Shown: positions 25,864 to 58,071 of the stretch, piece after piece
Layout: each line of letters opens with the position of its first letter
Numbering within the stretch: the stretch's first letter is position 1
Source of the DNA: Verrucomicrobiia bacterium
Lineage (GTDB): Bacteria; Patescibacteriota; Saccharimonadia; Saccharimonadales; JAGQNK01
Assembly (NCBI GenBank): GCA_035489575.1
Contig: DATHJY010000013.1
Span: forward strand, 155,346-219,345
Reading direction: 5' to 3'
Length of the DNA: 64,000 bases
The notes under the pieces: generated by a model
Database searches by the model: none
What the model saw: the letters and a program-made list of their open reading frames with translations, nothing else
What the model was told of the DNA's origin: nothing
Translations under genes and position numbers: made by a program

Positions 25864-25875
25864 GGGTCACCGCTA

Positions 25876-26547: not shown

Positions 26548-27041
26548 ACCAGCTCCGGCTGATCAACGCGAGACTAGGGGTGTCTAGGATTTATAAGTGC
26601 TCCCGCATCGGAGCTGCCTAGACACCCCACCGTGGGACCAAGACTTTTGCTTTGCCACGCTTTCAAGCGTTGCACCCCCAAGCAAATATCTCGGTCCCTC
26701 TTTCTTTTTTGGTTTATACTAAGGGGAGTCATGGGAGTACTTTCTGGCAGAACCTATCCCAGACCTCCAGTCCCGCCCCAAAACCACTCATTCCGGCGCC
26801 AATCCGCCCTGACTTTCCAGCCGTAACTATGGTTACGCCTGAAAAGACCAGAACGAATTGTCATCCGAAATGTATCGGTTTTGGCATCGGGAGCGAGATC
26901 TGACATAGGCTCTAAGAATTTCCACCCCCAGGCTCTATCAATTACCTTGTCTTCGTTCTTCTGGACGATGGCTCTAGCCAGCCTCACTGGCTTCAAACCT
27001 AACTCTTTTTTATAACCTTCTAGTCTCGAAAGGTAATTGAT

Positions 27042-44023: not shown

Positions 44024-44054
44024 TCCTTCGGGACGCCCACTCTCTACACCCAGG

Positions 44055-44098
44055 CCCGGGTATCATGTCATGCTGCCAGCATGATTTTGGTACCCGGG
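44055..44098. terminator. compound hairpin between convergent pspA and pcm
   Basis: cccgggta/tacccggg (44055-62 with 44091-98) and inner catgctg/cagcatg. Only weak T-runs on both sides. Confidence 0.5.
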
Positions 44099-44110
44099 TC
44101 GTAAATTCTT

Positions 44111-44734
44111 TTATGGGGCCATGAGTGGCACAAACAAGAAACCTTCGTAGGTCTCAGTGTGCACCTGACCATGCTCATCTTTTATAACTTGTACCAAGGC
44201 ATGCCCAATCGGCATAACCAACACTCCTGGCGCTGCCAGCTGATCTAATAACTCTTGCGGAACCTCTTGAGCCGCCGCCGATACCAAAATCCGATCGAAC
44301 GGTGCCTCCTCGGGCAGGCCCATCACCCCTGACGCACACTCATGCATGTGCAAATGGGACATGTTGAACTTGGCGACGGCCTTGCGACTCTTGTCTACCA
44401 GTTCGGGGATTCGTTCCACCCCGTGGACTACGCCCTGAGGCCCCACAATATAAGCCAATAACGCCGAGGTCCACCCAGAACCCGAGCCCACATCCAGCAC
44501 CTTATTGCCCGTCTCGGGCCGCAGCAGTTCCAGCATAAAGCCCACAGTGTAGGGCTGCGAGATAGTCTGGTGGTGGCCAATAGGCAGTGCCTGGTCGTAG
44601 TAGGCCTGGGCCTTATGAAAAAGCGGCACAAATTGCCGCCTGTCGATATGGACAAATGCCTCGTAAATACGAGGCGTGTGCGCCACATGATCGTTTCTGA
44701 GCCTTCGTGCGAGTGATCTGTTACTCATATCCAA
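44111..44734 (-). CDS. pcm: protein-L-isoaspartate O-methyltransferase
   Basis: TISQPYTVGFMLELL and SAM motif VLDVGSGSGWTSALLA. Confidence 0.85.
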   Translation of the reverse strand: MDMSNRSLARRLRNDHVAHTPRIYEAFVHIDRRQFVPLFHKAQAYYDQALPIGHHQTISQPYTVGFMLELLRPETGNKVLDVGSGSGWTSALLAYIVGPQGVVHGVERIPELVDKSRKAVAKFNMSHLHMHECASGVMGLPEEAPFDRILVSAAAQEVPQELLDQLAAPGVLVMPIGHALVQVIKDEHGQVHTETYEGFLFVPLMAP

Positions 44735-44759
44735 AAAATATCATAAACCCCGCTTAAAA

Positions 44760-45500
44760 ACAGCCAAAAACCTCTCACAACATGAGAGACCCCGAGCGGG
44801 TCTCTCATCGCGCGGGGAAAATGTGCTCCATTTTCTCCGGCTGCTCTTCCTGAAAACGGATAAGTACTTTTGGGAGTAAATCCCAAAAGTACTTGCTTTA
44901 TCAATGGGTTTGCACAAGAGGAAAGCCCGAGAACTTGTTCCTCGGCGCGCTAGGAGGGGAAATCATCTCCTCCTAAAATTAACTAAAAAGAGCCCGCAGA
45001 GGGTGAGACATGCCTGTGGCATGTTGCAAGGGAACCTTCCGATGGCAACTTGTTGCCAATCGCGAAGTTCCGGGGTCGCGCTAGCGCGACTGGGCACCTG
45101 GCCGTAACTAAAAACGGGCCTCCGAGAGGGGGTGGGCACCACTCGAAGACCCGATTTTAGGGAACAACCGAAGTTGCTCCCAACCACCCTTCAACCCACC
45201 CCAGCGAAGCGTCGATGTCCAAAACTCCATAAAGACTCGCGCCGGCCTCGAAAGGCCATACTTGCATACTCACTTTGAAACGGGGACCCTTAGATTCTCG
45301 AAAGATCCTAAGGGGCTAGTTAAAGGGGTTAGTTTGTTTTAGAACGCCGCCCGCCGGCAAGCCAGTAAGCAACGCCAAGAATAAGTGGAGGGTAACAACT
45401 CATAATCAGCACGTTCTAAAACAATCTAACAAAACATTCTGTGTAAACACAGAACTGTTAGAATAGGGGGTATAAGGTGCGTAATTTACCATTACAGTAA
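44760..45500 (+). ncRNA. large structured non-coding region (candidate ncRNA of unknown class)
   Basis: About 750 nt with no credible ORF, densely packed with perfect local hairpins (for example gtacttttggga/tcccaaaagtac at 44874-44902 and gtcgcgc/gcgcgac at 45085-45100). It contains module P at 45011-45084. Strand is inferred from a G.U pair in hairpin 44825-44849. Confidence 0.3.
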
Positions 45501-45533
45501 TTACAAATTGTCATTTTACCAAAAATATTATAT

Positions 45534-46406
45534 TTGTCAACACCTTTTATGAAAAAAGTCAACATGGTTACGCTTGAGGAATCCGCACTTCCGGACAGGA
45601 TTACCTCTGTTATACCACCACCAAAACAGCTCTATATACAGGGACCTCTAAAAAGTTTTTTGCAGGCCCCTTGTATTGCTATTGTGGGCAGTCGCCGGGT
45701 CAGTCCCTACGGTCGGGCGGTCACCCTTAGATTGGCCCAGGAACTGGCCGAACGGGGCATTGTTATTGTCAGTGGGCTGGCCATTGGCGTTGATAGCCTG
45801 GCCCACCAGGCAGCCCTGGATGCCGGGGGACGGACTATTGCCATTTTGCCGACGGCCCTCAGTAGCATCTATCCACGCAGCCATACCCACCTGGCGCAGA
45901 GCATATTACAGGCAGGCAACGTCCTGGTAAGCGAATATGCCGACGATACCCCGCCCATGAAGCACCAGTTTATTGCTCGCAATCGCCTTATTGCCGGACT
46001 GGCAGATGCCGTCCTGATACCAGAGGCAGCAGAGAAGAGTGGCAGCCTACACACCGCAGCCTTTGCGCTAGAGCAGGGCAAAACCATCCTGGCAGTACCT
46101 GGTAACATCACCAGCGAGTTATCACGGGGCACGAACAACCTGGTCAAAACAGGGGCCATTCCCGTCACGGCTGTGTCAGATATTTTCTATGCGCTTGGCA
46201 TAGAACCCACCCTCAGACAACTCCGCCTCCCCGCGGACGAAACAGAGTCAATTATCTTAGACCTGCTCCAACAAGGCACAACCGATATGACCCAGCTCCA
46301 GATCCAGAGTGGACTAGACCCGGCTCTATTTAATCAAACACTCACGATGCTGGAACTAGCTGGCAAGATCCGTTCCGTGGGCGCTGGTCATTGGGCCACC
46401 ACATAA
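45534..46406 (+). CDS. dprA: DNA-processing protein DprA (Smf)
   Basis: IVGSRRVSPYGR...IVSGLAIGVDSLAHQAAL. Start uncertain (TTG 45534 or ATG 45549). Confidence 0.85.
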   Translation: MSTPFMKKVNMVTLEESALPDRITSVIPPPKQLYIQGPLKSFLQAPCIAIVGSRRVSPYGRAVTLRLAQELAERGIVIVSGLAIGVDSLAHQAALDAGGRTIAILPTALSSIYPRSHTHLAQSILQAGNVLVSEYADDTPPMKHQFIARNRLIAGLADAVLIPEAAEKSGSLHTAAFALEQGKTILAVPGNITSELSRGTNNLVKTGAIPVTAVSDIFYALGIEPTLRQLRLPADETESIILDLLQQGTTDMTQLQIQSGLDPALFNQTLTMLELAGKIRSVGAGHWATT

Positions 46407-46516
46407 AAATACACATGGCTTTATAATCATAAATATGATATAAATGCAGGCTAACGTACGTCTTACGGCTGACGTTTGTTTTTTTGATAGATGTATGAGA
46501 AGCGTTTCTTCGGTGA

Positions 46517-46577
46517 GACGGTTTATTTGGGATAGGACAGCAGCAGTCAATGCTGTGCTATCCCAAATAAACCCGTC
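46517..46577 (+). promoter_or_regulatory. long hairpin in the leader of island I11
   Basis: 46517-46535 pairs with 46558-46577 (19 bp, one bulged C). It ends 26 nt before ATG 46604. Confidence 0.45.
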
Positions 46578-46603
46578 TTGTGCTCCGTGCACCATCGAAA
46601 GGA

Positions 46604-47062
46604 ATGCCCGTGTCTTCTGCCCCCGTCACCAGCTTTCCCCAAGAGCTCCGCCGGGTCCGACCCATTGTCTGGATCGGGTCCGCGCTCGTCTGCTTCTTCC
46701 TCGGCGTGGGACTCACCCTGTGGGTGACCCATAACGACAGGATCGAGGTCGACAAAATCAGCACCGTGGTCTACAGCCATGGACCGGCCGAACGCGCCAG
46801 TTACATCGCCGAATTCACGGTGACCGACTGCTACCCTGCGGATGCCGATTTCAGCGGACCCACCTGGAGCGCAACCCAGACCGAGTTGTCCAGGAACTAT
46901 CCCTCCGCACGTTTCGACTTCCACGGTGGTGACCCCAAGGGATTCGTCACCGTTAGGCTCGACCTGGACGGCTTCAAGGAAAGTCCGGAGCTTCGATTGG
47001 TCGCCAACGACATCCACCGTGTCTTGCACAGCAAGCACGCCTGCGAGCCCCCGAAGTCCTGA
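46604..47062 (+). CDS. membrane-anchored/secreted hypothetical protein (high-GC island I11a)
   Basis: N-terminal TM segment (IVWIGSALVCFFLGVGLTLWV), then a soluble domain. Start ATG 46604, or TTG 46580 / GTG 46610. Confidence 0.6.
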   Translation: MPVSSAPVTSFPQELRRVRPIVWIGSALVCFFLGVGLTLWVTHNDRIEVDKISTVVYSHGPAERASYIAEFTVTDCYPADADFSGPTWSATQTELSRNYPSARFDFHGGDPKGFVTVRLDLDGFKESPELRLVANDIHRVLHSKHACEPPKS

Positions 47063-47109
47063 TCTCCCAGATCTCAGTCCCTCAAAAACCTCGAAAGGGG
47101 GGAAACAAC

Positions 47110-47193
47110 ATGGGTTACGTCATCGGTGTCATCGTGGTCGCAGCTGCTGCGGCCTTCGGCTGGAACAAGTACAAGCAGAGCCGCTCGGCCTAG
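47110..47193 (+). CDS. 27-aa hydrophobic peptide (island I11b); not in ORF track
   Basis: ATG preceded by AAAGGGGGG. Sequence: MGYVIGVIVVAAAAAFGWNKYKQSRSA. GC3-rich. Confidence 0.45.
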   Translation: MGYVIGVIVVAAAAAFGWNKYKQSRSA

Positions 47194-47211
47194 TCGCCGG
47201 CGTAGGTCTTC

Positions 47212-47260
47212 GGTGGTAGCCGGCTCGTTCGTGCCTTTGGCGCAACAGCCGGCTGCCACC
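47212..47260 (+). other. 14-bp GC-rich hairpin in the 3' UTR of island I11
   Basis: ggtggtagccggct (47212-25) pairs with agccggctgccacc (47247-60), including one U.G wobble valid only on the + strand. Confidence 0.5.
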
Positions 47261-47368
47261 AGGCCGCCCCTTCATACATCATCAAACTTTTACAGGCTCC
47301 TGGCAGTCAGCGACCACACAGACCGCACCCTTGGTGCATTCTTTAATACCTCCTGCCAGTCCTGTACC

Positions 47369-47434
47369 CGCTTCTATGAATGTGCGATACCTTTCGCAAA
47401 ACTCATACTGATGAGTCCAAGAGGACGAAAAGCG
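47369..47434 (+). ncRNA. hammerhead ribozyme, type III (HHR-1)
   Basis: CGCUUC|UAUGA-AUG-UGCGA-UACCUU-UCGCA-AAAC-UCAUA-CUGAUGA-GUCC-AAGA-GGAC-GAAA-AGCG. Stem III is 5 bp (47369-73 with 47430-34), C17 is at 47374, and the G10.1-C11.1 pair is present. Confidence 0.9.
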
Positions 47435-47449
47435 AGTACAATTTGATAT

Positions 47450-47620
47450 ATGGAAACCAAAACAATGGTCTGGATTGGCCTAGGTGTCGGCAGTACCGTA
47501 GGGGGCTTGCTGGGTACCATGCTAGACCATGGAAACTTTCTAGGCCTGTGGTCACTAGCCCTTGGCACCCTGGGTTCACTTATAGGCATCTGGGCCGGTT
47601 TCAAACTGGCTAATATGTAA
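47450..47620 (+). CDS. 56-aa Gly-rich small membrane protein; not in ORF track
   Basis: METKTMVWIGLGVGSTVGGLLGTMLDHGNFLGLWSLALGTLGSLIGIWAGFKLANM. Backbone-like GC content; it starts 16 nt after HHR-1. Confidence 0.55.
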   Translation: METKTMVWIGLGVGSTVGGLLGTMLDHGNFLGLWSLALGTLGSLIGIWAGFKLANM

Positions 47621-47700
47621 ACGGAATTTGCTTTTACATACCGTAACGTAGTAGTGTTACTTGCTGTAACTCAAATAATCAGTACACTAAGCGTAAGCAC

Positions 47701-49986
47701 ATGGCAAAAAATCTCGTTATTGTAGAAAGTCCGGCCAAGGCCAAGACCATAGAGAAATATCTTGGCAAGGATTACTCGGTCAAAAGCAGCTTTGGACACA
47801 TCCGTGACCTGCCTAAAAAAGGCATGTCTATAGATATTGCCAAAAATTTTGCACCCACCTACGAAATCAGTCCAGAAAAGAAGAAGGTCGTTGCCGAACT
47901 CAAAAAAGCCCTCAAAGGCGCCGAAGTCTGGCTGGCAAGCGACGAAGACCGCGAAGGGGAGGCTATAGCCTGGCATTTATGCGAGGCTCTCAAACTAGAC
48001 CCCAAGAAAACCAAACGCATTGTCTTCCACGAAATTACCAAGTCCGCCATAGAGGCAGCCATAGAAAACCCCCGCACCGTAGACATGAATCTAGTAGACG
48101 CTCAGCAAGCTCGACGCATCCTAGACCGTCTAGTAGGGTACGAACTCAGCCCCGTCCTCTGGAAAAAGGTCCGTCCGGGCCTCAGTGCTGGTCGCGTCCA
48201 GTCGGTAGCCGTCCGCCTCATTGTCGAGCGCGAGCGCGAGATAAAAGACTTCCAGACACAGAGCAGCTTCAAGGTTACTGCCACATTCCATACCCCAGAG
48301 AAAGCCGAGCTACCGGCAGAATTAACAGATAAGATCGTAGACGAAGAGAAGGCCGAAGCCTTCCTGCAAGCCTGCGCAGGCGCTACCTTTACCGTCAAAG
48401 ACGTCGCCACCAAACCCGGCACGCGCAACCCGGGCGCCCCCTTTACTACCTCTGTCCTACAGCAAGAAGCCGCCCGTCGCTTGGGCTATAGCGTCAAACA
48501 AACCATGACTCTAGCTCAGCGTTTATACGAAAACGGTCATATCACTTACATGCGTACCGACAGTACCATCCTGTCCGGCCTGGCTATAAAGGCAGCCGAA
48601 GACTACATCACCAAAGAATACGGTGCCCAGTATCATCAGGTTCGCCAATACAAGACCAAAGACAAGGCCGCCCAAGAGGCCCACGAAGCCATTCGCCCCA
48701 CAGACTTCCGCAAGGTAGCCGCTGGCGATGATCCCCAGCAAAAGAAGCTATACGACCTTATCTGGCGCCGCGCCCTGGCTAGCCAAATGGCCCCCGCCCA
48801 GATAGACCGCACCGAAATACTTATAGATGTCAGCGACCGCACAGAACAATTCTTGGGCAAAGGCGAGATCGTCAAATTCGACGGTTGGTTCAAGGTGTAC
48901 GGCGGCGGCAAAGAAGATGTCCTGTTGCCACCAGTACAAGTAGGCGAGAAGCTAGCGCTGCAAGCCGCAGAGGCCCATCAGACCTTTAGCCGCCCGCCAG
49001 CCCGCTATGGCGAGGCCGGCCTGGTGCGCAAGCTCGAAGAGCTGGGCATCGGTCGCCCAAGCACCTACGCGCCAACCATCAGCACCATCCAGACCCGTGG
49101 CTACGTAGAAAAGGGCGACTTGCAGGGAGAAGAACGGACAGTAGTACACCTAGCACTCCTGAAAGGCGCCGTCCTGCGCGACGAACAAACAGAGGTACAT
49201 GGGGCAGATCGCAGCAAACTCACTCCCACCTCTGCGGCAGATGTAACTACCGACTTCTTGGTTAGGCACTTCGCTTCAGTTGTCGACTATGATTTTACTG
49301 CCACCGTCGAAGAAGACTTTGACGCCATTGCTGACGGCAAGCGCAAATGGGAAGACATGCTCAAAGAGTTTTATAAAGATTTCCACGCCCTCGTGAAAGA
49401 AGGCGAGAACGTCAGCCGCGAAGAAACTTCTCAGGCACGCGTACTTGGCCCAGACCCCAAGAGCAGCAAGCCTATTATCGCTCGTTATGGCCGCTTTGGA
49501 CCAATGCTCCAACGGGGAGAAACCGAAAGCGAAGAAAAACCAGACTTTGCACCGCTTCCAGAAGGCGTAGACCTAGAGGACGTCACATTAGAGCAAGCAC
49601 TCGAGATGTTCAAGCTTCCACGCACCGTCGGCACGACAGAGCAGGGCGAGGAGATAAAATCCAACATCGGCCGCTACGGCCCGTATATCCAGATAGGCAA
49701 GCTGTTTGTGTCCATCAAAGGTCACGACCCTATGAAGATTACCGAGGAAGAAGCCCGAGAACTATACGCTGCCAAGCTCAAACAAGAGGCAGAGAGGCAC
49801 ATAGCCGACTTCGGCAAGATCAAGATACTGAACGGCCCCTATGGTCCGTACGTAACAGATGGCACGAAGAACGCCCGTATCCCCAAAGAAACAGACGCCA
49901 CAAAGCTAACAGAGACAGACGCCAAAAAAATACTGGACGAAGCACCCGCCAAAAAGCGCTTCGGCAAGCGTGCCGCTAAGAAGTAA
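47701..49986 (+). CDS. topA: DNA topoisomerase I (type IA)
   Basis: Toprim N-terminus MAKNLVIVESPAKAKTIEKYLG, the catalytic-Tyr region ITYMRTDS, and a basic C-terminal tail. Confidence 0.95.
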   Translation: MAKNLVIVESPAKAKTIEKYLGKDYSVKSSFGHIRDLPKKGMSIDIAKNFAPTYEISPEKKKVVAELKKALKGAEVWLASDEDREGEAIAWHLCEALKLDPKKTKRIVFHEITKSAIEAAIENPRTVDMNLVDAQQARRILDRLVGYELSPVLWKKVRPGLSAGRVQSVAVRLIVEREREIKDFQTQSSFKVTATFHTPEKAELPAELTDKIVDEEKAEAFLQACAGATFTVKDVATKPGTRNPGAPFTTSVLQQEAARRLGYSVKQTMTLAQRLYENGHITYMRTDSTILSGLAIKAAEDYITKEYGAQYHQVRQYKTKDKAAQEAHEAIRPTDFRKVAAGDDPQQKKLYDLIWRRALASQMAPAQIDRTEILIDVSDRTEQFLGKGEIVKFDGWFKVYGGGKEDVLLPPVQVGEKLALQAAEAHQTFSRPPARYGEAGLVRKLEELGIGRPSTYAPTISTIQTRGYVEKGDLQGEERTVVHLALLKGAVLRDEQTEVHGADRSKLTPTSAADVTTDFLVRHFASVVDYDFTATVEEDFDAIADGKRKWEDMLKEFYKDFHALVKEGENVSREETSQARVLGPDPKSSKPIIARYGRFGPMLQRGETESEEKPDFAPLPEGVDLEDVTLEQALEMFKLPRTVGTTEQGEEIKSNIGRYGPYIQIGKLFVSIKGHDPMKITEEEARELYAAKLKQEAERHIADFGKIKILNGPYGPYVTDGTKNARIPKETDATKLTETDAKKILDEAPAKKRFGKRAAKK

Positions 49987-49991
49987 AATCA

Positions 49992-50020
49992 TTGACTTTT
50001 AGCTAATTTTATACTATAAT
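49992..50020 (+). promoter_or_regulatory. consensus sigma70 promoter TTGACT-17-TATAAT for island I12
   Basis: -35 at 49992-49997 and -10 at 50015-50020. The leader hairpin GAGUG...CACUC follows. Confidence 0.65.
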
Positions 50021-50087
50021 ACACTTGAGTGATTTTCCACACTCGTCAAATGGAAATGGACCCCCAAGCACCCCTGGGAGAAACCCC

Positions 50088-50597
50088 ATGCTTTCCAATC
50101 GAACCCTCGGCCTCATGGCCGGCATCATCGTGACGCTCATCGGCATCACGCTCTGGCTCAGCTGGAACTTCGGCTACTGGAGCGACGACGGCCCGCGTGT
50201 CGACCACACCAGCCTGTTCCTGCCCAGCGCAATCTGCGGTACCCTCGGCATCATCGCCGCGGCCATCATCATGATCGCGACCATCTACGGCCCCAAGTCG
50301 GTGTACGGCAATCCCGGATTCGTCAAGCATCTCGCAAACGAGTGCGCTGGCTGGGGAGCTGTTGTCCTGATCCTGCCGTCCTTCATGGGCGCCCTCATGG
50401 CTGGGACCGACATCCCCAACAACGTGTCCAACGGTTCTGTCCCGTTCCACTGGGCCACCTTCGGCAGCTACTCCGGTAGCCTCCTCGCTGGCCTGCTGGT
50501 GACCAACCTGTTGCTGTCCCTGGTGCTGTACTTCTGGGCAGACCGGCCTGGTGACCTGACCATCGACAGCTGGCTGAGCCGAGTCGTCCAAGCCTGA
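50088..50597 (+). CDS. 169-aa 4-TM membrane protein (high-GC island I12)
   Basis: ATG 50088 is preceded by GGGAG, and the GC shift begins ~50060. The antisense 181-aa ORF is a shadow ORF. Confidence 0.7.
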   Translation: MLSNRTLGLMAGIIVTLIGITLWLSWNFGYWSDDGPRVDHTSLFLPSAICGTLGIIAAAIIMIATIYGPKSVYGNPGFVKHLANECAGWGAVVLILPSFMGALMAGTDIPNNVSNGSVPFHWATFGSYSGSLLAGLLVTNLLLSLVLYFWADRPGDLTIDSWLSRVVQA

Positions 50598-50657
50598 GGG
50601 CTGGCCCTAGGACAAGGCAACACGCCGCCGTGCATGATACCTGGAGGGTCCAGGACG

Positions 50658-50713
50658 TGAAGTGGTAGAGGTGATGGATCATCCATCGACAACCCCTCAT
50701 ACCTCCCACTTCA
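50658..50713 (+). repeat. 56-nt perfect direct repeat (copy 1), structured 3'-UTR element
   Basis: Identical to 51422-51477. Outer stem ugaagugg/ccacuuca encloses GAGGUGAUGGAU-C-AUCCAUC-(GACAACC bulge)-CCUC. Confidence 0.85.
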
Positions 50714-50720
50714 CGCCCAC

Positions 50721-50790
50721 ACAGTTTCTATGAATGTGCAGCCAACACTGCAAGAGTCATACTGATGAGTCCAAGAGGACGAAAAGCTGT
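50721..50790 (+). ncRNA. hammerhead ribozyme, type III (HHR-2)
   Basis: ACAGUUUC|UAUGA-AUG-UGCAG-CCAACA-CUGCA-AGAG-UCAUA-CUGAUGA-GUCC-AAGA-GGAC-GAAA-AGCUGU. Stem III is 7 bp including one G.U, C17 is at 50728, and the distal stem I covaries with HHR-1. Confidence 0.9.
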
Positions 50791-50809
50791 AAAACTTCTT
50801 TGACATTAG

Positions 50810-50818
50810 TGCTATAAT
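50810..50818 (+). promoter_or_regulatory. extended -10 promoter TGcTATAAT for island I13
   Basis: TG at 50810-11 and hexamer at 50813-18. The adjacent TTGACA (50800-05) is only 7 nt away, too close to serve as its -35. Confidence 0.5.
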
Positions 50819-50878
50819 ATTTTGCGAGTGATTCGTTTCTGCACTCACAAATAACCCTCGAGGCCTCTTGGAGGAATC

Positions 50879-51373
50879 ATGTTCAGCATGCTGACGTTCC
50901 GTCGCATGACACTCGCCACGCTCGGCTTGGGCGCGCTGCTTTTCCCGATCTGTTGGTTTGCCGCCTACGGAACCCAGGAATTGTCCAGGGCACCTCATGG
51001 TGACCTATTCAGCGCTGGCGTCATATCCGGCATTATCGGTGTGGTGATCGCCTACGTGCTCCTCATGGGCACCATCCATGTCGAAGATGCCGACTTCGGT
51101 GAAAGTCAGTTCCTGGGACACCTGATGGCAGCCTTCGGGATCGTCGCAGCTGTGCTGTTCGTGTTGGGCTGCATAATCGCCGGCTTCGTCTCCAGCTCCC
51201 CCGAAGGTGGTCCCATCGACACGGGCGTGTTCGGCACCATCGTCATCAGCCTACTCGCCAGCTACCTCACCACCTTTTTCGTCCTGGTGGGTGCGTTCGG
51301 CGACGAGACGTGGATCGGTGGCAAGAAGACTGACAACAACCTCTTCCGGGACGGTGTTATCAGCGGGCCCTAA
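50879..51373 (+). CDS. 164-aa 4-TM membrane protein (high-GC island I13)
   Basis: ATG preceded by GGAGG at 5-nt spacing. GC3-rich (63% GC in the first 60 nt by hand count). Confidence 0.7.
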   Translation: MFSMLTFRRMTLATLGLGALLFPICWFAAYGTQELSRAPHGDLFSAGVISGIIGVVIAYVLLMGTIHVEDADFGESQFLGHLMAAFGIVAAVLFVLGCIIAGFVSSSPEGGPIDTGVFGTIVISLLASYLTTFFVLVGAFGDETWIGGKKTDNNLFRDGVISGP

Positions 51374-51421
51374 GGCACACACTGGCCAACAGAGAGTTAC
51401 AAATCCTGGAGTACCAGGTCA

Positions 51422-51477
51422 TGAAGTGGTAGAGGTGATGGATCATCCATCGACAACCCCTCATACCTCCCACTTCA
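51422..51477 (+). repeat. 56-nt perfect direct repeat (copy 2)
   Basis: Identical to 50658-50713. Confidence 0.85.
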
Positions 51478-51483
51478 TGTCAC

Positions 51484-51533
51484 AGCTTCTACAAATGCGA
51501 TTTGTACTGATGAGTCCAAAAGGACGAAAAGCT
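51484..51533 (+). ncRNA. hammerhead ribozyme, type III (HHR-3)
   Basis: ACAGCUUC|UACAAAU-GCG-AUUUGUA-CUGAUGA-GUCC-AAAA-GGAC-GAAA-AGCU. Stem III is 5 bp and C17 is at 51489. Confidence 0.9.
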
Positions 51534-51564
51534 ATAGCCACAGAGGCAACAGAGAAGGAAATAG

Positions 51565-51593
51565 TTGACAAATACTGTTTTTATTATTAAAAT
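51565..51593 (+). promoter_or_regulatory. sigma70 promoter TTGACA-17-TAAAAT upstream of island I14
   Basis: -35 at 51565-70 and -10 at 51588-93, followed by a ~225-nt leader. Confidence 0.55.
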
Positions 51594-51820
51594 AACATAG
51601 TTTTACATGGGTTTTCACCCCTAAAACGTATTATTGACAAGCAGGCAGACAGAGCGGAGTATTGTGGGCTTTTTGTAAGCAAAGAGCACAGAATATTCTG
51701 CTCCTGTCACCACAAGAACAGACACATCCGTGGCTTTAGCCGTGGGGACTCGCAAAAGCAGGTCAAACTGCGCGAGTTAGAAGGAAATCTCAGTCCAGCC
51801 AACCGAAAGGCTTCGGCACC

Positions 51821-52081
51821 ATGAGCATCACCACCCTCGCCAGCATCCCCGCCACCTACAACACCCCCACGTACTACGCCCCCGCCTACCAGCCGCGGGT
51901 CGACCTCGTGTCGATCAGCCTCACCCTGGTGTTCGAGCGGCAGAGCGTGATCCGCCTGGGCTACGCCTGGATCGATGGCTACTTCGTCGCCATCGACCTC
52001 CTGGTCGTCACCCAGTACGCCGTGGTCATCGAGAAGACCGCCCTCCTCGTCGACGGCGACATCGTCGTCTTCATCGGCTAG
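51821..52081 (+). CDS. 86-aa hypothetical protein (high-GC island I14)
   Basis: ATG start, GC3-rich, beta-rich hydrophobic sequence. Weak Shine-Dalgarno site. Confidence 0.5.
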   Translation: MSITTLASIPATYNTPTYYAPAYQPRVDLVSISLTLVFERQSVIRLGYAWIDGYFVAIDLLVVTQYAVVIEKTALLVDGDIVVFIG

Positions 52082-52097
52082 TCGACTTCGTCGGCTC

Positions 52098-52203
52098 GGT
52101 ATGACGAGTAGGTGGGTGCGGATGTGTACAGCAAAAGGATGTGGCCTATGGCTGCAACTCTCCTTTTTCTGTTCCCCTCTGTTCACCCGCCTGCTGTCAT
52201 ACC
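52098..52203 (+). other. long-range 20-bp stem closing the 3' UTR of island I14
   Basis: 52098-52118 pairs with 52184-52203 (one bulged G and two U.G wobbles, which would be A.C mismatches on the other strand). Confidence 0.5.
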
Positions 52204-52544
52204 AACATGATTTTATAAAAAAGCATTTGACACAAAAGTAATATGCTGTTATTATATTTAAGACCTATCTGTTTTACAGAGCTGTACATAACAAGCATAA
52301 GCGTTTACGAACAGTCGAATTGTAGAGTAATATTCGCTCTAACAGATTTAGGTTGAATATTTATCCACAATTTTACAGAGATACAACATATACCTCTTAT
52401 AGCTTCCTATGCAACAGTTTAAGCATAACCGTCCATTTAGTGATACAATAGCTATATCTACAAAGGGTATTGACTCAGCAGACTATTTGTTTTACAATAA
52501 TATTAAAACTTGAGATTACCCAGACCGGGTAAGGGAAGTAAATA

Positions 52545-53582
52545 ATGACAGAAGCTAATCGAAACCGGCTGCAGATCGAAAAGATCATTACCGACATTTT
52601 GGGCACTATTGATCGCGAACGTGAACGCGAGATTATTGCACGTCGTTATGGTTTGTTCGACCGCAAAGAAACTCTCGAACAAATCGGCGAGCTTCTTGGT
52701 ATTACCCGTGAGCGCGTTCGGCAGCTCGAGAAGGCCGTTATGGCTCGTCTCAAGGCAATGGCTGACGCTGGGCAACTACCGCATATCAAAGAAGTACAGA
52801 CCCTTTTGCTCGACGAAGTTAACACTATGGGCAAAGTTGGCCGCGTAACCGACCTCAGCGGACGACTTACCAAAGACAACAGCCGCGTAGACCAGGCTCG
52901 TATCTCTTTCTTGGCAGAGCTCAGTCCTAAGCTGGCTGTCGTAGAAGACAACGACCACTTCCATCACGCTGTTGGCGTAGCTGAAGTTCACGACGAAAAG
53001 ACCATTAAAGAGCACGTCATGACTATTATTGCCGCCATCAAAGATATCGGCGAACCTAGCGCTATCGAGCATGTCACCACGACAGCCGGTAAAGAAGACG
53101 CTGAGCACGTAGCCGCTCTGGCTAGCACTAGCAAGCAGCTTGCTACCCTTAACGGACGCTGGGGCCTCGTGAAGTGGCCCATGGTCAACCCAAAGAACAT
53201 TCGTGACAAAATCTACGTTATCTTGCACGAAGCAGGGCAGCACATGCACTTCAACGAGATCTCTGAAGCCATCAAGGGTTCAGACTTCAAGCGCAAAGAC
53301 GTAACTACCCAAGCTATCCACAACGAACTCATCAAAGACAAACGCTTTGTCCTGATTGGTCGTGGTATCTACGCCCTCAAAGAGTGGGGCTACGAAAAGG
53401 GTACCGTTGCTGACATCATAGAAGAAGTCTTGCGTACCGCAAGCGAACCTATGCACCGCGACGAGATCGTTAAAGAAGTCCTGAAGAGTCGTCACGTCAA
53501 AGAGACAACCATTCTTCTGAATCTACAAGGCAAGCCGCAATTCAAGCGCGTTGCCAAAGCTACCTACGCCCTCGCTGAGTAA
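52545..53582 (+). CDS. sigma-70 region-4 HTH plus HARE-HTH-like domain protein
   Basis: REIIARRYGLFDRKETLEQIGELLGITRERVRQLEKAV (region 4.2-like). The C-terminal half resembles the winged-helix domain of RNAP delta. Confidence 0.6.
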   Translation: MTEANRNRLQIEKIITDILGTIDREREREIIARRYGLFDRKETLEQIGELLGITRERVRQLEKAVMARLKAMADAGQLPHIKEVQTLLLDEVNTMGKVGRVTDLSGRLTKDNSRVDQARISFLAELSPKLAVVEDNDHFHHAVGVAEVHDEKTIKEHVMTIIAAIKDIGEPSAIEHVTTTAGKEDAEHVAALASTSKQLATLNGRWGLVKWPMVNPKNIRDKIYVILHEAGQHMHFNEISEAIKGSDFKRKDVTTQAIHNELIKDKRFVLIGRGIYALKEWGYEKGTVADIIEEVLRTASEPMHRDEIVKEVLKSRHVKETTILLNLQGKPQFKRVAKATYALAE

Positions 53583-53700
53583 GTTCTGGATATCCCATGG
53601 TCACCTCCTCACCGTGAGGTTGATACACCATGGGACCCAGAGCCTATCATATGGCAGGGTAAAGGCCCCGGTGGCAAGAGGGGAAGGAAGCCTTTCGGTA

Positions 53701-54237
53701 ATGGAAAGACACGAACAAGAAGATACCACCAGTAACATGATGGAGCTCACTAATGGCTCTACGTTTCTGGGCCGTGACGAAGAGCCATACATAGAGCTAC
53801 TCGCTCAAGCAGGCGAAGAGGGCCTTACGGCCGCTGATTTCGTAAACGCCCACATCCACAAAAGAACTGCAGTATATAGCACCTTAGCCCGGCTAGCAGC
53901 AGACGAAGTTATCGTGAAACGAATCGATCGTTCGGGTCTGGCTTCTCGTCCACCGGAAAGAATAGTCCTTGACCCCAAACGCCTCCCAGAAGTCATAGCT
54001 CATTTCGAATACCTCGCACAGCGAGTCCAAGGCACCTTGCGGCGCTCAATGCCCAAGCAGAGCAGGAGACAGAGCAAGAGTTATAAACAAAAAGCGAACA
54101 TTACTAGTAGCATAGTACGAACAAAGAAATACAAAAACCGAACAAGTGTTCATAAAAAATACAGCTCGAGAAATTATAAGACAAGACAAAACAGCCAGCA
54201 TTTTTCAAAGGCCATGCAGAACGGGCAGGGACAATAA
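53701..54237 (+). CDS. hypothetical protein with winged-helix-like N-terminus and Lys/Arg/Ser-rich tail
   Basis: ATG 53701 (MERHEQ...) is preferred to the track start, which overlaps the previous gene. Confidence 0.45.
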   Translation: MERHEQEDTTSNMMELTNGSTFLGRDEEPYIELLAQAGEEGLTAADFVNAHIHKRTAVYSTLARLAADEVIVKRIDRSGLASRPPERIVLDPKRLPEVIAHFEYLAQRVQGTLRRSMPKQSRRQSKSYKQKANITSSIVRTKKYKNRTSVHKKYSSRNYKTRQNSQHFSKAMQNGQGQ

Positions 54238-54747
54238 AAATCAAAGCCAAACATAAGGGCAGAGGGCACAAAACAGCCGCGGGTGATTGGCGAGCGAACC
54301 AAAACCAAACATACACATGACGTCGCACAATGTATATTTTGCGACTCACATATAGGATTTATAGACGACTATCGATACCCCTCCTGCAGGGGATAAGCAC
54401 AGGCAGTATGGCACTTGGCTTACGGTTTACATTTATGCGTGCCCTAAAGCACACACCTAACGCTGTTTAAGCCCCGCGGCCGTCCAGCCACTCGTTTGCT
54501 GTACCGGAAAGCTCTGTTGTATTTACCGACATTCCCACGACTTTTCCACACCCGGCCGTGAAAACATTTGCTTTTTCGCTATTTACTTTGTTTTATATAT
54601 TATTCCCCTTTACTTCCTCTGCTCTGCTTTTTTTGACTTTTGCCCTACTTTGTATTTTTGTATAGTTTTTTCACGGCCTTCCACAGCACTTTTATATTGA
54701 ACGTTTTACGAACATGAGGGAGGGGTAAAGCGGGGGACCTTCACTGC

Positions 54748-55653
54748 TTACTTATAAAAGGCTTTTTCTGATACCCGCACATCTATGTACTCTGCTGGCA
54801 GGACGTTGTCCTTTTCCAGTCGTTGCTTGACCGCTATAAACGTCCCTGCCTGAAGCTTCCCCTCCCCTTGGGTGTCAAACTTGACGTAATATGGCCTGTC
54901 TTTGGGACGGACTCGTAATTCTCGGGCGGCTGGCAGGCTCATGCTATCCAAAGGGATGTTCTTGGCCCGTAACTGCGCTGACACATCGGTAATAAATTGC
55001 ACCACCTCCTTAGGCAGGGCGGATTTGCCAGGCTCTAGCGATACACCTGATTCATCACGCACGAGAGGCAGCCTGTCACGCGTCGAGCTATCGACCTCGC
55101 TGGCTTTTACAATAGCACGACCATGCACATCCACGATAAACGCACCACTACTACGCGTCCCCAGTACCAGCGCCGGCTGAGCGGGCTGGGCCTGTATTAC
55201 CAGCCGCCGGCCCATCAGCGGCATAACAACAGCAATATCACCCAGCTCCGGAAAGGCTTCTCGCAGTTCGGCCGCCAGCTTTGTGGTATCTATGGTCAAC
55301 TTACTACTGTTCAGTAATGACCGGGCCAGTATATCCCGGGCTTCTTTTTCATACACCGCTCTGTTTCCAACCAATGTTTGGTCACTGCTGCGCAGTATCT
55401 GTACGTTGGGTAGCGTACTGAGTGTCGACATATACACCAGCGACACCAGCAGGACGACAGCAGCAACCATAGAAGGTGCATACTTCAGCGCCTCTTTGTT
55501 TACACGACGGCTCGTAGCCGTTTTCTTGGGAGTCATATTCCGACCAACCGACGGCTCTGACGAGCGACTGGCATAATATGAAAAGACTTGTGCCGATTGC
55601 TGGGCACGAACGTTTCGTTGGGCTGGTTGTGGTTTTTGTTTTTTGCGGAACAT
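54748..55653 (-). CDS. ftsQ: cell-division protein FtsQ/DivIB-like
   Basis: Position after murG in the dcw cluster; basic N-terminus, one TM segment, POTRA-like region. Confidence 0.7.
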   Translation of the reverse strand: MFRKKQKPQPAQRNVRAQQSAQVFSYYASRSSEPSVGRNMTPKKTATSRRVNKEALKYAPSMVAAVVLLVSLVYMSTLSTLPNVQILRSSDQTLVGNRAVYEKEARDILARSLLNSSKLTIDTTKLAAELREAFPELGDIAVVMPLMGRRLVIQAQPAQPALVLGTRSSGAFIVDVHGRAIVKASEVDSSTRDRLPLVRDESGVSLEPGKSALPKEVVQFITDVSAQLRAKNIPLDSMSLPAARELRVRPKDRPYYVKFDTQGEGKLQAGTFIAVKQRLEKDNVLPAEYIDVRVSEKAFYK

Positions 55654-55670
55654 AGTGCTAATTGGGGGTT

Positions 55671-56822
55671 TTATTTGGTCTGTACTTCTAATAATAACAG
55701 TGCCAGCTTGCGGGACGCATCAGGTATGCTGATATCTTGTAGTTTGCTGGCCAATTTCTGACGGCGTTCAGGATCTTGCAACAGACTCCGTATTGCCGCG
55801 TCCAGAGCAGAAGTGTCTCTCTTAAAATCAGCCTCATCTACAACCAACACCGCATTATGCCTTACCAGATTTTCGGCATTTTTGAGCTGGTGGCCCCCTG
55901 TTAGGAGGGGATTTGGCACAACCACACAAGCCTTGCCCTGTACCCCAAACTCAGCCAGTGCATTGGCGCCCGCTCGCGTCACCACCACGTCCGCAGCACC
56001 GCTGTACCGATATAAAGGTTGTAAAAATTCCAACACCTCCAGGCGCTCATGACTGAAATCCCCATAAGTATCTGCCTGTCCCTTCCCTACCTGGTGAATA
56101 ACAAAAAGATCTGCATAGTCCTGAAGTAGCCCGGGCACCACCTGTCGCATGCCGTCGTTCAACCGACGCGCACCTGTGCTACCCCCTGTTATCATAAGTA
56201 CCCTGCTCTTCCCTGGCAGAGATAGTTCTTTTTTGTACTGTGCCTGCAGGTGCGCATCTACCGGCTTGTAGTCGGCAGTGGTCAGAACACCCACATACCT
56301 CACGCTCTCTGGTGGGTAGGTGTAGAATTCGGCAGGCATGCCTGTGGCATGATATACAGCCCACTTGGCCACCAACCGGTTAGCCAGCCCTGGCATAGCG
56401 TCGGAATCATGGGTGACAAACGGCTTGCGCCAAAAAGCCGAGGCTACCCCTATGGGCACCCCTACAAAGCCGCCCTTTAAAAGCACTACATCTGGCCGCA
56501 ATTTCTTGACCAGGAAGATGCCCTGGATAATGCCCAGCACTATGTACACGGCATCTCGTATGTTCAGGGCAATGGTCTTCAGGTCCAGCAAGCGGCGCAG
56601 CCACGACTCGCCATGATACCTGCGGAACTTGCCCGCAAAGATGGTAACTATTTTATCAATATCAGCGTTTCCGTCAGTCATGTGTGCAAACCGTCCGTTA
56701 CGTTCACCAGCGTATATGACGTAACAATCCGGGTCGGCTTTTTTCAGCTGGTGGGCCACTGCCAATAGTGGCGATATGTGCCCACCAGTACCTCCACCGG
56801 TCAGTAGGATCCGTTTAGGCAT
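55671..56822 (-). CDS. murG: UDP-N-acetylglucosamine--N-acetylmuramyl-(pentapeptide) pyrophosphoryl-undecaprenol GlcNAc transferase
   Basis: GGTGGHISPLLAVA N-terminal motif and dcw cluster context. Confidence 0.9.
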   Translation of the reverse strand: MPKRILLTGGGTGGHISPLLAVAHQLKKADPDCYVIYAGERNGRFAHMTDGNADIDKIVTIFAGKFRRYHGESWLRRLLDLKTIALNIRDAVYIVLGIIQGIFLVKKLRPDVVLLKGGFVGVPIGVASAFWRKPFVTHDSDAMPGLANRLVAKWAVYHATGMPAEFYTYPPESVRYVGVLTTADYKPVDAHLQAQYKKELSLPGKSRVLMITGGSTGARRLNDGMRQVVPGLLQDYADLFVIHQVGKGQADTYGDFSHERLEVLEFLQPLYRYSGAADVVVTRAGANALAEFGVQGKACVVVPNPLLTGGHQLKNAENLVRHNAVLVVDEADFKRDTSALDAAIRSLLQDPERRQKLASKLQDISIPDASRKLALLLLEVQTK

Positions 56823-58071
56823 TGGCTTCGCTCCTAGCTCGGTAGCGACTGATTGGCCGGCCGCTAGCTGGCTGTCGATCGGTCGAGACGCCTCCCGTAT
56901 TTACCCCATAGGAAGTGTACCGGGATATATTAAACACCAGCCCTACGGCAGCCATCACGAATATGACGCTCGTACCACCATAACTAATAAACGGCAATGT
57001 AATACCTTTGAGCGGCAGCAGACCAATCATCGCCCCAATGTTGATAACTGTCTGGGTACTGAGCCAAGCCAACACCCCAGCTACGATCAGGCGTGAAAAA
57101 TCGTCAGTGGTACGTTCCATAATGTTTTTTATGCGTACAAAGAAGGCCATAAGCAGACAAATCAACAGTGTCGCCCCTATAAAGCCGAACTTCTCTGCAA
57201 TGATAGCAAAGATAGAATCGTTGGCAGCCTCTGGAAGATAGCCAAAAGCTTGGCCGCTATTTTGCAAGCCAATACCAAATATACCCCCAGAGCCCACTGC
57301 AATCAGCGCCTGACAGGCCTGGTAACCCGTACTCTGACAGTCACGCTCAGGGTTCAGAAAGGTGCTTACCCGGTCACGGCGATAGCTAAAAGGCAGAATG
57401 AGCAGTGCCAGACCAATGACCACGACTCCACCGGTTTGAGCAATGCGCTTGAGCGGCAGCCCCGCCACAAATGACATGGCAGCTAGCATAGCCAGAACAA
57501 CCGCAGTAGACCCCAGGTCCTTTTGGGCGATAGCAACCACTACACCAACCACTGCCAGTACGAACATCAGCGGCTTGAGTGTTTTTTGGGTGCTTCCTAT
57601 CTCGCCCTTTCTAATTTGCTGCTCCAGAAATGCAGACAGGCAGATAACCAGTCCAAGCTTTACCAGCTCTACCGACTGTAGCGACAGGCCACCAAAGCGT
57701 ATCCAACGATGTGCCGGATATTCGGCGCTGACGGGCAGCACCAGCGAAATAAGGGTAGCCAACACCGCAGCCACCAGCAGTGGTCGTTGCAGTTGGCGCC
57801 ATTTTGTCAGAGGAATCGCCGCCACAATGGCAAAGGCCACTACCCCCAAGCCAATGGCTGTTAGCTGCTTGGTTACAAAATAATTCTCGCCGACATTCTT
57901 CTGGGCACTCAGGCCGGGGCTAATGGCATATACCACAATCAAACCCACGGCCAACAGCAAGGCGCTGATAAGTACCAGTGTATAGTCTGGCTTGTGTCGC
58001 CTTTGCAGCGTACCACTGTCACGCGCCAGAACTGCTGGCCGTCGACGCCCTCCTGTAGTTCGCGCAAACAT
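56815..58071 (-). CDS. ftsW: SEDS-family peptidoglycan polymerase FtsW/RodA
   Basis: About 10 TM segments, C-terminal PFISYGGTS motif, dcw cluster context. ATG 58071 is preferred. Confidence 0.85.
   Translation of the reverse strand: MFARTTGGRRRPAVLARDSGTLQRRHKPDYTLVLISALLLAVGLIVVYAISPGLSAQKNVGENYFVTKQLTAIGLGVVAFAIVAAIPLTKWRQLQRPLLVAAVLATLISLVLPVSAEYPAHRWIRFGGLSLQSVELVKLGLVICLSAFLEQQIRKGEIGSTQKTLKPLMFVLAVVGVVVAIAQKDLGSTAVVLAMLAAMSFVAGLPLKRIAQTGGVVVIGLALLILPFSYRRDRVSTFLNPERDCQSTGYQACQALIAVGSGGIFGIGLQNSGQAFGYLPEAANDSIFAIIAEKFGFIGATLLICLLMAFFVRIKNIMERTTDDFSRLIVAGVLAWLSTQTVINIGAMIGLLPLKGITLPFISYGGTSVIFVMAAVGLVFNISRYTSYGVNTGGVSTDRQPASGRPISRYRARSEANA

Follow-up and report, generated by a model that had tools for sequence, protein, structure and literature searches.

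Tandem cassettes after topA on a Saccharibacteria-like chromosome end in a hairpin and a type III hammerhead, a candidate self-cleaving 3'-end module

We analysed a 64,000-nucleotide (nt) stretch of bacterial DNA (contig DATHJY010000013.1, positions 155,346 to 219,345 of the forward strand; called the window below), in which two co-oriented tandem units directly follow the topoisomerase gene topA. The units, at 49992-50790 and 50791-51535, each carry one open reading frame (ORF) for a small membrane protein and end in the same three-part 3' tail, which consists of a small hairpin, a long bulged hairpin and a type III hammerhead. The anatomy of this tail, its conservation and covariation, and its position relative to genes were directly observed. 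We propose that it is a self-cleaving 3'-end maker and insulator that would leave a hairpin-protected mRNA, and we give this reading a probability of roughly 0.55. The combination of a hairpin with a hammerhead was found to be abundant in Patescibacteria beyond this locus, a widespread module that had been missed by an earlier, model-made description of the window from its letters and ORF list (hereafter the sequence-only reading).

Two tandem units and their three-part 3' tail

The sequence-only reading had described two consecutive units of shared architecture, and every element on its list could be located in both of them (coordinates are those of the window, plus strand unless stated). The promoter of unit 1 (TTGACT-17-TATAAT, 49992-50020) begins 6 nt past the topA stop codon (49986) and is canonical, with 11 of 12 consensus matches. 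The strong promoter claimed for each unit did not hold for unit 2, where the elements read from the sequence are TTGACA and, only 7 nt on, TGcTATAAT (50800-50818). The promoter scan did not report this site as a canonical promoter; it would be of the extended -10 type at best and is doubtful. The GAGUG...CACUC leader hairpins are real and lie at the predicted +1, in unit 1 at 50027-50044 (GAGUG-N8-CACUC, 7 nt past the -10; fold z -0.7) and in unit 2 at 50826-50846 (GAGUG-N11-CACUC, at the predicted 5' end; fold z -1.35), with their ends corrected here to 50044 and 50846. Their stems measure only 5 base pairs (bp) and are thermodynamically unexceptional in both units. The leaders are notable for their +1 position and their conservation despite this ordinary stability, and the same leader (GAGTGA...CACTT) is present at L206, a related locus discussed below.

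Shine-Dalgarno (SD)-like sites, GGGAGA at 50076-50081 and GGAGGA at 50870-50875, precede ORF1 and ORF2, respectively. ORF1 (50088-50597, 169 amino acids (aa)) encodes four hydrophobic helices, matches no Pfam family and has a GC content at third codon positions (GC3) of 0.81; its paralog ORF2 (50879-51373, 164 aa) encodes four hydrophobic segments with a GC3 of 0.77. The two proteins are 28% identical across 120 aa (E=7e-10), and both genes lie above the native median GC3 of 0.60, in agreement with their earlier description as diverged, GC-rich four-transmembrane (4-TM) ORFs. Aligning the two units, a check that the sequence-only reading had proposed, revealed 65% identity for the ORF DNA, 63% for the proximal 3' untranslated region (UTR), 86% for the small hairpin, 97% (58/60) for the long hairpin, and 82% for the spacer plus hammerhead. 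The ORFs are therefore far more diverged than the long hairpin.

The small 3'-UTR hairpins, recognised from sequence and fold, are CCUGGAgggUCCAGG at 50640-50654 in unit 1 and CCUGGaguaCCAGG at 51405-51418 in unit 2. They are followed by the long bulged hairpins at 50656-50715 and 51420-51479, which contain an identical 56-mer (50658-50713 and 51422-51477) and, in unit 1, extend its stem by 2 bp. As the earlier description had it, the element folds as an outer stem round a bulged hairpin. It occurs exactly twice in the window with 0 mismatches, with 0 copies expected from shuffles, and the long hairpin has a predicted folding free energy (dG) of -30.9 kcal/mol with a z of -5.2. The repeat extends beyond the 56-mer to 64 nt at 97% identity. 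The long hairpins differ at only two positions, which pair with each other directly outside the 56-mer; G50657-C50714 of unit 1 is replaced by A51421-T51478 in unit 2, a compensatory change. The close spacing of the 56-mer and the hammerhead was also confirmed, although the distance to stem III measures 6-7 nt and not the 7-10 nt given before.

A type III hammerhead ends each unit, as had been read, with a canonical core and junction in both. HH1 (50721-50790) carries an extra hairpin in stem I, a 16-nt extension, and its predicted cleavage site follows C50728; HH2 (51484-51533) would be cleaved after C51489. Two further type III hammerheads lie in the window, HH0 (47369-47434, predicted cleavage after C47374) and one on the minus strand (12745-12689, predicted cleavage after the C of CUAUCGUC). 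Published acceptance criteria for hammerheads admit no mispair at 1.1-2.1, 10.1-11.1 or 15.1-16.1 (PMC3088659). All four copies have the core CUGAUGA...GAAA, the A15.1-U16.1 pair, C17, and Watson-Crick pairs adjoining the core. Stems I, II and III span 5-7, 4-5 and 5-7 bp; the first two are closed by loops and stem III is open. The structural scan returned these four hammerheads in the window and 0.0 in 20 shuffles, and the minimum-free-energy fold recovered the three-way junction in 3 of the 4 copies. Three co-oriented hammerheads thus lie within 4.2 kb, with one more at 12.7 kb, which makes them an array. They are likely to be self-cleaving ribozymes, judging by their intact cores.

Standard annotation registers them poorly. 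The Rfam model RF00008 scored HH2 at 42.3 bits (E=5e-7), with a gathering score of 48.5, and did not report HH1, HH0 or the minus-strand copy as type III. The low scores stem from the seed set of the model, since the core itself is complete. The modules are also mosaic, in that HH1 resembles HH0 in the stem I extension, where the two covary (GCAG/CUGC vs GCGA/UCGC), and unit 2 in the hairpin. As a separate observation, ACAGCUU, which forms the 5' strand of stem III in HH2, is fully complementary to the 3' strand of HH1 (AAGCUGU) and leaves a C.A mismatch with its own 3' strand (AAGCUAU). Such cross-pairing would be of consequence only for an RNA released by both cuts and closed into a circle by ligation.

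No intrinsic-terminator-like site was detected at 50598-50800 or 51374-51540, where the tails are CGCCCACACAG and TGTCACAGC. The sequence-only reading had allowed that the 56-mer might prove to be a generic dispersed repeat. Within the 64 kb covered it is not one: both window copies sit in hammerhead modules, and 22-26-nt cores of the 56-mer gave 0 matches in the genome, metagenome and viral contig collections. Two hammerhead-linked copies within 64 kb also differ from what is expected of repeats of the repetitive extragenic palindrome (REP) or miniature inverted-repeat transposable element (MITE) kind. Elsewhere, the arm motifs were found only in the homologous cassette of L205, a related contig, and as a single 11-nt match in L086.

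The inner stem of the long hairpin (50670-50675 / 50702-50706) pairs an SD-like GAGGU with an anti-SD-like ACCUC, and the equivalents in the related loci L205, L206 and L124 place AGAGGA/GGGAGGA opposite UCCUCU/CUCUCC. Hammerheads of the candidate phyla radiation (CPR) show a polarity bias here: of 116, 20 carry anti-SD-like pentamers within the 25 nt that precede stem III, and 2 carry SD-like ones. Because fewer than 20% of the loci are affected, we keep this as an observation only.

Conservation of the tail and its wider class

The fold order of small hairpin, long bulged hairpin and hammerhead is common to units 1 and 2, L205, L206 and L124. At L205 and L206, the two relatives of these units for which DNA was available, CCTGG-N5-CCAGG is separated by one base from the long bulged hairpin, behind which a type III hammerhead follows, and the CCTGG-N-CCAGG motif occupies the matching position in unit 2, L205, L206 and L124. 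The closest agreement is with L205, whose TopA is 73% identical to that of the window and whose ORF is about 27% identical. There the hairpin arms (CCAGGTCATGGAGTGGTAGAGGT...ACCTCCCGCTTCATG) differ from those of the window (CCAGGTCATGAAGTGGTAGAGGT...ACCTCCCACTTCATG) at two positions, and the small hairpin is also nearly the same. Both arm differences are A to G and turn an A-U pair into G.U, so that pairing is kept only in the RNA of that strand. The L206 hairpin is shorter (CAUAGAGGA...UCCUCUAUG) and has three doubly changed pairs relative to the window. The hammerheads follow the same pattern, with compensatory changes in stems I, II and III of the homologous cassettes; stem II of the L205 hammerhead, for instance, is GGCC/GGCC, compared with GUCC/GGAC in the window.

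The tail is not tied to one protein. L124 encodes a 43%-identical homolog of the 414-aa ORF that lies in the minus-strand hammerhead cassette of the window; this protein is unrelated to ORF1 and ORF2, and it is nevertheless followed by the CCUGG hairpin, the long hairpin and the hammerhead, so that modules and ORFs must have been recombined. A syntenic ortholog of the 414-aa cassette, L123 (77% aa identity), retains its own hairpin and hammerhead nearly unchanged. The CCUGG hairpin was also considered as a general partner of CPR hammerheads and rejected, as it matched at 1 of 115 loci and there at the wrong distance, 175 nt away.

As judged from their sequences, ORF1 and ORF2 stem from an old duplication and lie side by side; they belong to a small family of four-helix membrane proteins that is restricted to one lineage and sits at the dprA-topA-sigma locus. 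A word-indexed search of 5.8 billion proteins with ORF1 returned ORF1 itself as the sole match. An exhaustive profile search of 1.84 billion representative proteins found four further family members, P0127-P0130. ORF1 is nearer to P0127 (42% identity) than to ORF2 (28%), which indicates that the duplication of ORF1 and ORF2 is old. The gene for P0128 immediately follows topA on a 109-kb contig of matching gene order, that for P0129 (on L205) lies between dprA and topA, and that for P0130 (on L206) upstream of the sigma-like gene, and the family thus keeps the same chromosomal locus in several genomes. An ORF2-identical protein was found on contigs from two other samples, the DNA of which is 100% identical to the window. 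The structure model of ORF1 contains four long helices, at a predicted local distance difference test (pLDDT) score of 60 that is too weak for meaningful fold comparison. GC3 of the family is also high elsewhere, reaching 0.75 in L205, compared with 0.50 for topA there, and 0.74 in L206, and ranges over 0.74-0.81 in three genomes with a native GC3 of 0.50-0.60. This persistence in related Saccharibacteria-type contigs leaves a recent transfer from a host unsupported; a host-derived origin of ORF1/2 and the 414-aa ORF was considered and likewise gained no support, their relatives being found only in Saccharibacteria-type contigs, where the high GC3 is kept. A 141-aa 4-TM protein at the same site in L052 was likewise not accepted as a family member, as its hhalign probability was 14% and kinship could not be demonstrated.

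These comparisons refine the earlier claim that the 3' element is under much stronger constraint than the coding sequence. The claim stands for the arms and the small hairpin, which are kept in L205. It fails for the apical half, which is different and longer in L205 and unconserved in L206 too. The arms are, on the evidence of cross-genome conservation and pair-preserving changes, under purifying selection, and because their sequence and not just their structure is conserved, a specific partner, protein or RNA, may be involved. The view that the 56-mer is 100% conserved because it is constrained was overstated, given that other window cassettes use unrelated hairpins and that the apical half is free to vary. 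Since ORF1 and ORF2 are old paralogs, the 56/56 identity requires concerted evolution as well, and identity of the apical part probably reflects gene conversion that homogenised the tandem copies. If the non-coding identity in the rest of the module (82-86%) is taken as the neutral level, the probability of 56/56 identity is about 1e-4; this figure is compatible with either conversion or constraint and does not favour concerted evolution as the only explanation.

We then examined how widely such hammerheads occur. Taxon names throughout are the depositors' labels, and ORF calls in the comparison loci are crude. The core CTGATGAGTCC-N4-GGACGAAA, seeded from a single stem II sequence (GUCC-N4-GGAC), matched at least 120 stretches among species-representative genomes, and 90 of 120 loci bear Patescibacteria/CPR names, mostly Saccharibacteria. 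As type III hammerheads with a stem I of 6-7 bp and a stem III of 4-10 bp, 122 of 132 core matches could be parsed, and these share a conserved UG opening loop 1. In a set of 80 CPR hammerheads, pre-selected by a pairing filter that 122 of the 132 core matches pass, 98.3% of cells are paired and 399 double changes were counted, compared with 108 in shuffles; 10 of 16 pairs changed on both sides, and the covariation score was 0.80 vs 0.19 after shuffling. The Rfam gathering score was reached by 1 of about 24 CPR hammerheads checked.

The position of these hammerheads is equally consistent. In 108 of 113 CPR cases the hammerhead is preceded, at a distance below 350 nt, by the end of an ORF on the same strand (median gap 86 nt), and a helix ends at most 3 nt before stem III in 89 of 113. 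The 90 nt upstream fold at -28.7 kcal/mol, compared with -19.3 in shuffles. Of the genes next downstream, 38 run in the same direction as the hammerhead and 18 converge on it, which fits a 3'-end function better than a 5' regulatory one. The upstream ORFs are mutually unrelated, forming 103 clusters from 114, and compositionally distinct: the upstream 400 nt lie at the median 86th GC percentile of their own locus, with 46% in the top decile, whereas the 400 nt downstream are average (Wilcoxon p=6e-7; GC deviation +0.062 upstream and +0.005 downstream). Most CPR hammerheads are solitary. A promoter motif follows in only 4 of 64 CPR loci, and for this reason the statement that cassettes carry promoters is limited to the window, where most of them have their own. 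The viral contigs gave 125 core matches, of which 48 are hairpin-abutted type III hammerheads, with no upstream GC excess; those listed are mostly abutted on the 5' side by a hairpin, often a recurrent GGTGTCTTCAAAGACACC.

A proposed self-cleaving 3' end and the alternatives

We propose that the hammerhead folds co-transcriptionally and would cut itself after C50728 in unit 1 or C51489 in unit 2. The upstream mRNA would then retain a 2',3'-cyclic phosphate end 10-13 nt beyond a very stable hairpin, which may shield it from 3' exonucleases and tailing. The downstream RNA would become a separate molecule that starts with the folded ribozyme and a 5'-OH and includes the next cassette or, at HH0, a conserved small gene before topA. 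Such a protein-independent module could let accessory genes sit among housekeeping genes, with read-through being processed into single-gene mRNAs. The adjoining hairpin probably also guards the ribozyme fold against the GC-rich coding RNA. A 3'-end function is suggested by the position of the tails, the abutting hairpin, the lack of U-tract terminators, and the presence of a hairpin plus T-run in sister cassettes. One window hammerhead lies between convergent genes, the 414-aa ORF and gltX. Of the candidate roles listed by the sequence-only reading, the wider evidence (position, abutting hairpin, no U-tract) favours the first, a 3' structure that stays on the mRNA once the ribozyme has cut and that protects it; no support was found for a recombination site.

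Several points weigh against this proposal. Cleavage, 3' ends and mRNA stability are all predictions from sequence. Cleavage alone does not halt RNA polymerase, so that termination is left unexplained. An upstream hairpin with a dG of -12 kcal/mol or better is present in only 52 of 113 CPR hammerheads. Conservation of the L205 arms exceeds what a block to exonucleases would need and hints at a specific partner outside this model. The doubtful promoter of unit 2 leaves two routes to its transcript, its own start or processing of unit 1 read-through. Finally, the GC3 excess of the hammerhead-linked ORFs (0.74-0.81 vs 0.50-0.60) is not accounted for.

A rival explanation, which we judge unlikely, is that only stem stability matters and that the 56/56 identity reflects recent gene conversion or a module swap. 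The hairpins of the other window hammerhead cassettes are unrelated in sequence to the 56-mer, its apical part is wholly different in L205 and L206, and its core is missing from all three contig collections searched. The age of the ORF1/ORF2 duplication means that the identity was not inherited from it, and the mosaic make-up of HH1, with its stem I like HH0 and its hairpin like unit 2, fits swapping. However, about 38 nt of arms and the CCUGG hairpin are near-unchanged in L205, where neutral sequence would be saturated.

A broader conjecture, speculative and rather unlikely, is that accessory-gene cassettes are exchanged throughout the Patescibacteria and share the hairpin plus type III hammerhead as their 3' boundary. 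Unrelated, rapidly evolving ORFs of persistently high GC3 would be inserted among housekeeping genes at recurrent hot spots, of which dprA-topA is one. The module would then serve both as an insulator that makes the insertions tolerable and as homology for shuffling cassettes and modules by natural transformation and gene conversion; the high GC3 could arise through biased gene conversion, and the near-invariant arms of the 56-mer might bind a partner.

It is quite improbable that the tail is primarily a recombination or mobility module, in which attC-like folded single-stranded DNA or the 56-64-nt direct repeats move cassettes and the hammerhead marks the boundary. Cassette content does differ between related genomes, both between dprA and topA (the window, L052, L205 and L127) and after topA (the window and the P0128 contig). 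The unrelated, compositionally deviant ORFs before CPR hammerheads and the attachment of the CCUGG module to two unrelated ORF families (ORF1/2, and the 414-aa family in L124) also point in this direction, and the direct repeat could support RecA-mediated loss of unit 2. However, no integrase, transposase or reverse transcriptase was found among 20 neighbouring ORFs scanned or in the gene tables of related contigs, and no attC core sites (RYYYAAC ... GTTRRRY) were present in the hairpin arms TGAAGTGG...CCACTTCA. The substitutions in the arms preserve pairing as G.U, a mismatch in DNA and in the complementary strand, and most cassettes have their own promoter. All ORF2-bearing contigs are identical, with no excision variant among them.

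We consider it very improbable that the units are phage-derived, as morons or as remnants of a prophage or satellite whose hammerheads process phage transcripts. Bacterial hammerheads have been tied to prophages (PMC3088659), and the hairpin-abutted type III composite, often with the recurrent hairpin, is common on viral contigs. Against this, the neighbours dprA, topA, the sigma-like gene, gltX and PBP2 are syntenic housekeeping genes, the ORF family stays at one chromosomal locus in several genomes, no DNA match was found in phage records (see below), and viral hammerheads lack the upstream GC excess.

Last and extremely improbable is a circular RNA, in which the HH1 and HH2 cuts free a 761-nt RNA (50729-51489) that an RtcB-type ligase closes into a translatable ORF2 circle: unit 2 does have a co-oriented type III hammerhead on either side, its own promoter is doubtful, the HH2 stem III 5' strand pairs better with the HH1 3' strand than with its own, and the possibility was raised by Perreault et al., who did not detect such products (PMC3088659), but most CPR hammerheads are single, a second flanking hammerhead is lacking for units 0 and 1 and for the minus-strand cassette, and no ligase or reverse transcriptase was identified.

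Chromosomal setting and known hammerhead systems

The self-cleaving 3'-end maker that we favour would operate in an ordinary chromosomal neighbourhood. Pfam searches of the window identified products of the housekeeping type, including glutamyl-tRNA synthetase (GluRS, gltX), DprA, TopA, PBP2, histidine kinases and a VirD4-like ATPase, along with a sigma-70 r4/HARE-HTH protein, encoded by what we call the sigma-like gene. The 761-aa type IA topoisomerase gene topA (47701-49986) matches Topoisom_bac at E=3e-115. Window proteins match those on contigs of Saccharibacteria metagenome-assembled genomes (MAGs), with 73% identity for GluRS and 71-72% for TopA. Several window proteins are 70-96% identical to those on Saccharibacteria-type contigs, gene order matches too, and the synteny of dprA, topA, the sigma-like gene, gltX and PBP2 is kept across genomes. 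The window is thus a Saccharibacteria-like chromosome of an ultrasmall bacterium and not a phage. In line with this, megablast of 44000-58000 against 50,697 phage records gave 0 matches; the sequence-only reading had not recognised a bacterial chromosome here. The NCBI label 'Verrucomicrobiae bacterium' on the source MAG is probably wrong. For the topA region, no relatives above about 75% identity were found. Among metagenomic topA loci, the best relatives are only about 70% identical and a hammerhead is present in 1 of 80 (L127), indicating that the cassettes are lineage-restricted and not a general feature of the topA neighbourhood.

Other GC-rich cassettes are scattered through the window. 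Outlier ORFs have a GC3 of 0.77-0.95 and comprise ORF1, ORF2, PspA (43232-44023), 78-800, 25372-25863 and 26062-26547; further GC-rich ORFs are the 414-aa ORF (14094-12850, minus strand), the ORFs of cassette 0 (46610-47194) and ORF3 (51821-52081). Cassette 0 (46610-47434), in the dprA-topA spacer, contains two ORFs (46610-47062, 47111-47194), followed by a long hairpin (about 47295-47362) and HH0. The minus-strand cassette (12689-14094), convergent with gltX, consists of the 414-aa ORF, for which only three homologs were found, a long hairpin at about 12804-12747, and its hammerhead. Cassette 3 (51565-52195) has a promoter at 51565-51593, the 86-aa ORF3, and a long hairpin at 52107-52195 with a dG of -50.8 and a z of -5.1, and lacks a hammerhead. 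In window cassettes that lack a hammerhead, the 3' end is a hairpin with or without a T-run. The hairpins of ORF3 (52107-52195) and of the minus-strand cassette (12747-12804) share the arm sequences GGTGGGTG...CACCCGCC, which suggests that 3' hairpin modules have been exchanged between cassettes.

The dprA-topA spacer is variable. It contains different GC-rich hammerhead cassettes in the window (46406-47700), L052 (2775-4404), L205 (1702-2932) and L127 (1732-3184). In the window, L052 and L205, the last spacer hammerhead is followed some 10-15 nt on by the ATG of a conserved gene of 56-63 aa (56 aa in the window), which encodes a membrane protein and has no obvious Shine-Dalgarno site. Two more observations concern other parts of the window. 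The region 24800-26720 holds a second GC3-rich cassette family, with ORFs at 24953-25126, 25372-25863 (GC3 0.86) and 26062-26547 (0.81), a shared 5' leader GTCATTCTGACAT..TAGGTGCTAGGCCTnCCCTAGAAGTGAA, and a shared 3' long hairpin plus T-run containing CGCTTTCA(T/A)GCGTTG, with no hammerhead. The PspA/IM30 gene (43232-44023) has a GC3 of 0.95, and its protein is 78-81% identical to sequences named Acidimicrobiales; pspA looks like a fairly recent transfer from high-GC Actinomycetota, and the donor was possibly the host lineage.

That hammerheads flank small, variable bacterial genes is already known. No paper joining hammerheads with Saccharibacteria, Patescibacteria or CPR was found in a literature that covers few subscription journals. 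Four features appear to be new: the location on a Saccharibacteria chromosome, the conservation of a three-part 3' tail, the strong enrichment in Patescibacteria of type III hammerheads that score below the Rfam threshold and so are mostly missed by standard annotation, and the link to GC-rich ORFs. One clade preserves the entire tail much more closely than the protein encoded ahead of it. Saccharibacteria are reportedly now genetically manipulable (PMC10633639), and ribozyme-dead and hairpin-deletion alleles are therefore directly testable.

The role of genomic bacterial hammerheads has been an open question since 2010-2011 (PMC6155905, PMC6765202), and the loci described here sharpen it by placing the ribozyme at the 3' ends of accessory genes, nearly always abutted by a hairpin. 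The closest known systems are the hammerhead arrays of prophages, in which close-set hammerheads flank single genes or short blocks (PMC3088659; PMC6155905; PMC6765202). Such gene-flanking arrays cleave in vitro and in vivo, and the processing of long transcripts has been proposed as their role (PMC3088659; PMC6765202). They resemble the window in having close co-oriented hammerheads beside small, non-conserved ORFs of unassigned function, and in the proposed cutting into gene-length mRNAs with separate stabilities. Unlike them, the window cassettes lie between housekeeping genes of a Saccharibacteria chromosome, with no prophage or integrase neighbourhood. Here, moreover, all hammerheads are of type III and coupled to an upstream two-hairpin module, mostly with their own promoters, the ORFs are strongly GC3-enriched, and most of the hammerheads fall below the Rfam threshold.

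Plant and animal retrozymes carry type III hammerheads in direct repeats and yield circular RNAs (PMC6155905). Two co-oriented type III hammerheads likewise flank unit 2, of about 760 nt. However, its interior consists of promoter elements and an ORF, and the repeat comprises only 64 nt plus the ribozyme. There are no long repeats resembling long terminal repeats (LTRs), no target duplications and no primer-binding sites, and related hammerheads are mostly solitary. Integron cassettes share with the units a tandem order of variable small ORFs at a fixed site, each with an imperfect bulged hairpin of about 60 nt, but the window has no integrase among the 20 ORFs and no attC core, its cassettes have promoters, and RNA (G.U) pairing is preserved.

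Two further comparisons bear on the function we favour. Intrinsic terminators and 3' stem-loop stabilisers also place a stable GC-rich hairpin after the stop codon and protect against exonucleases; here, in contrast to the terminators, there is no U-tract, and the predicted 3' end would arise by self-cleavage and bear a 2',3'-cyclic phosphate. RiboJ insulators combine a type III hammerhead from a satellite RNA with an adjacent hairpin, placed in the 5' UTR with the hairpin downstream of the ribozyme. They share with the tail the pairing of a type III hammerhead with an auxiliary hairpin, and self-cleavage that makes transcript ends independent of context. In the cassettes described here the hairpins lie upstream, and the main predicted product is the 3' end of the preceding mRNA. 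If our proposal is right, the three-part tail would be a natural, protein-independent transcript insulator comparable to those of synthetic biology.

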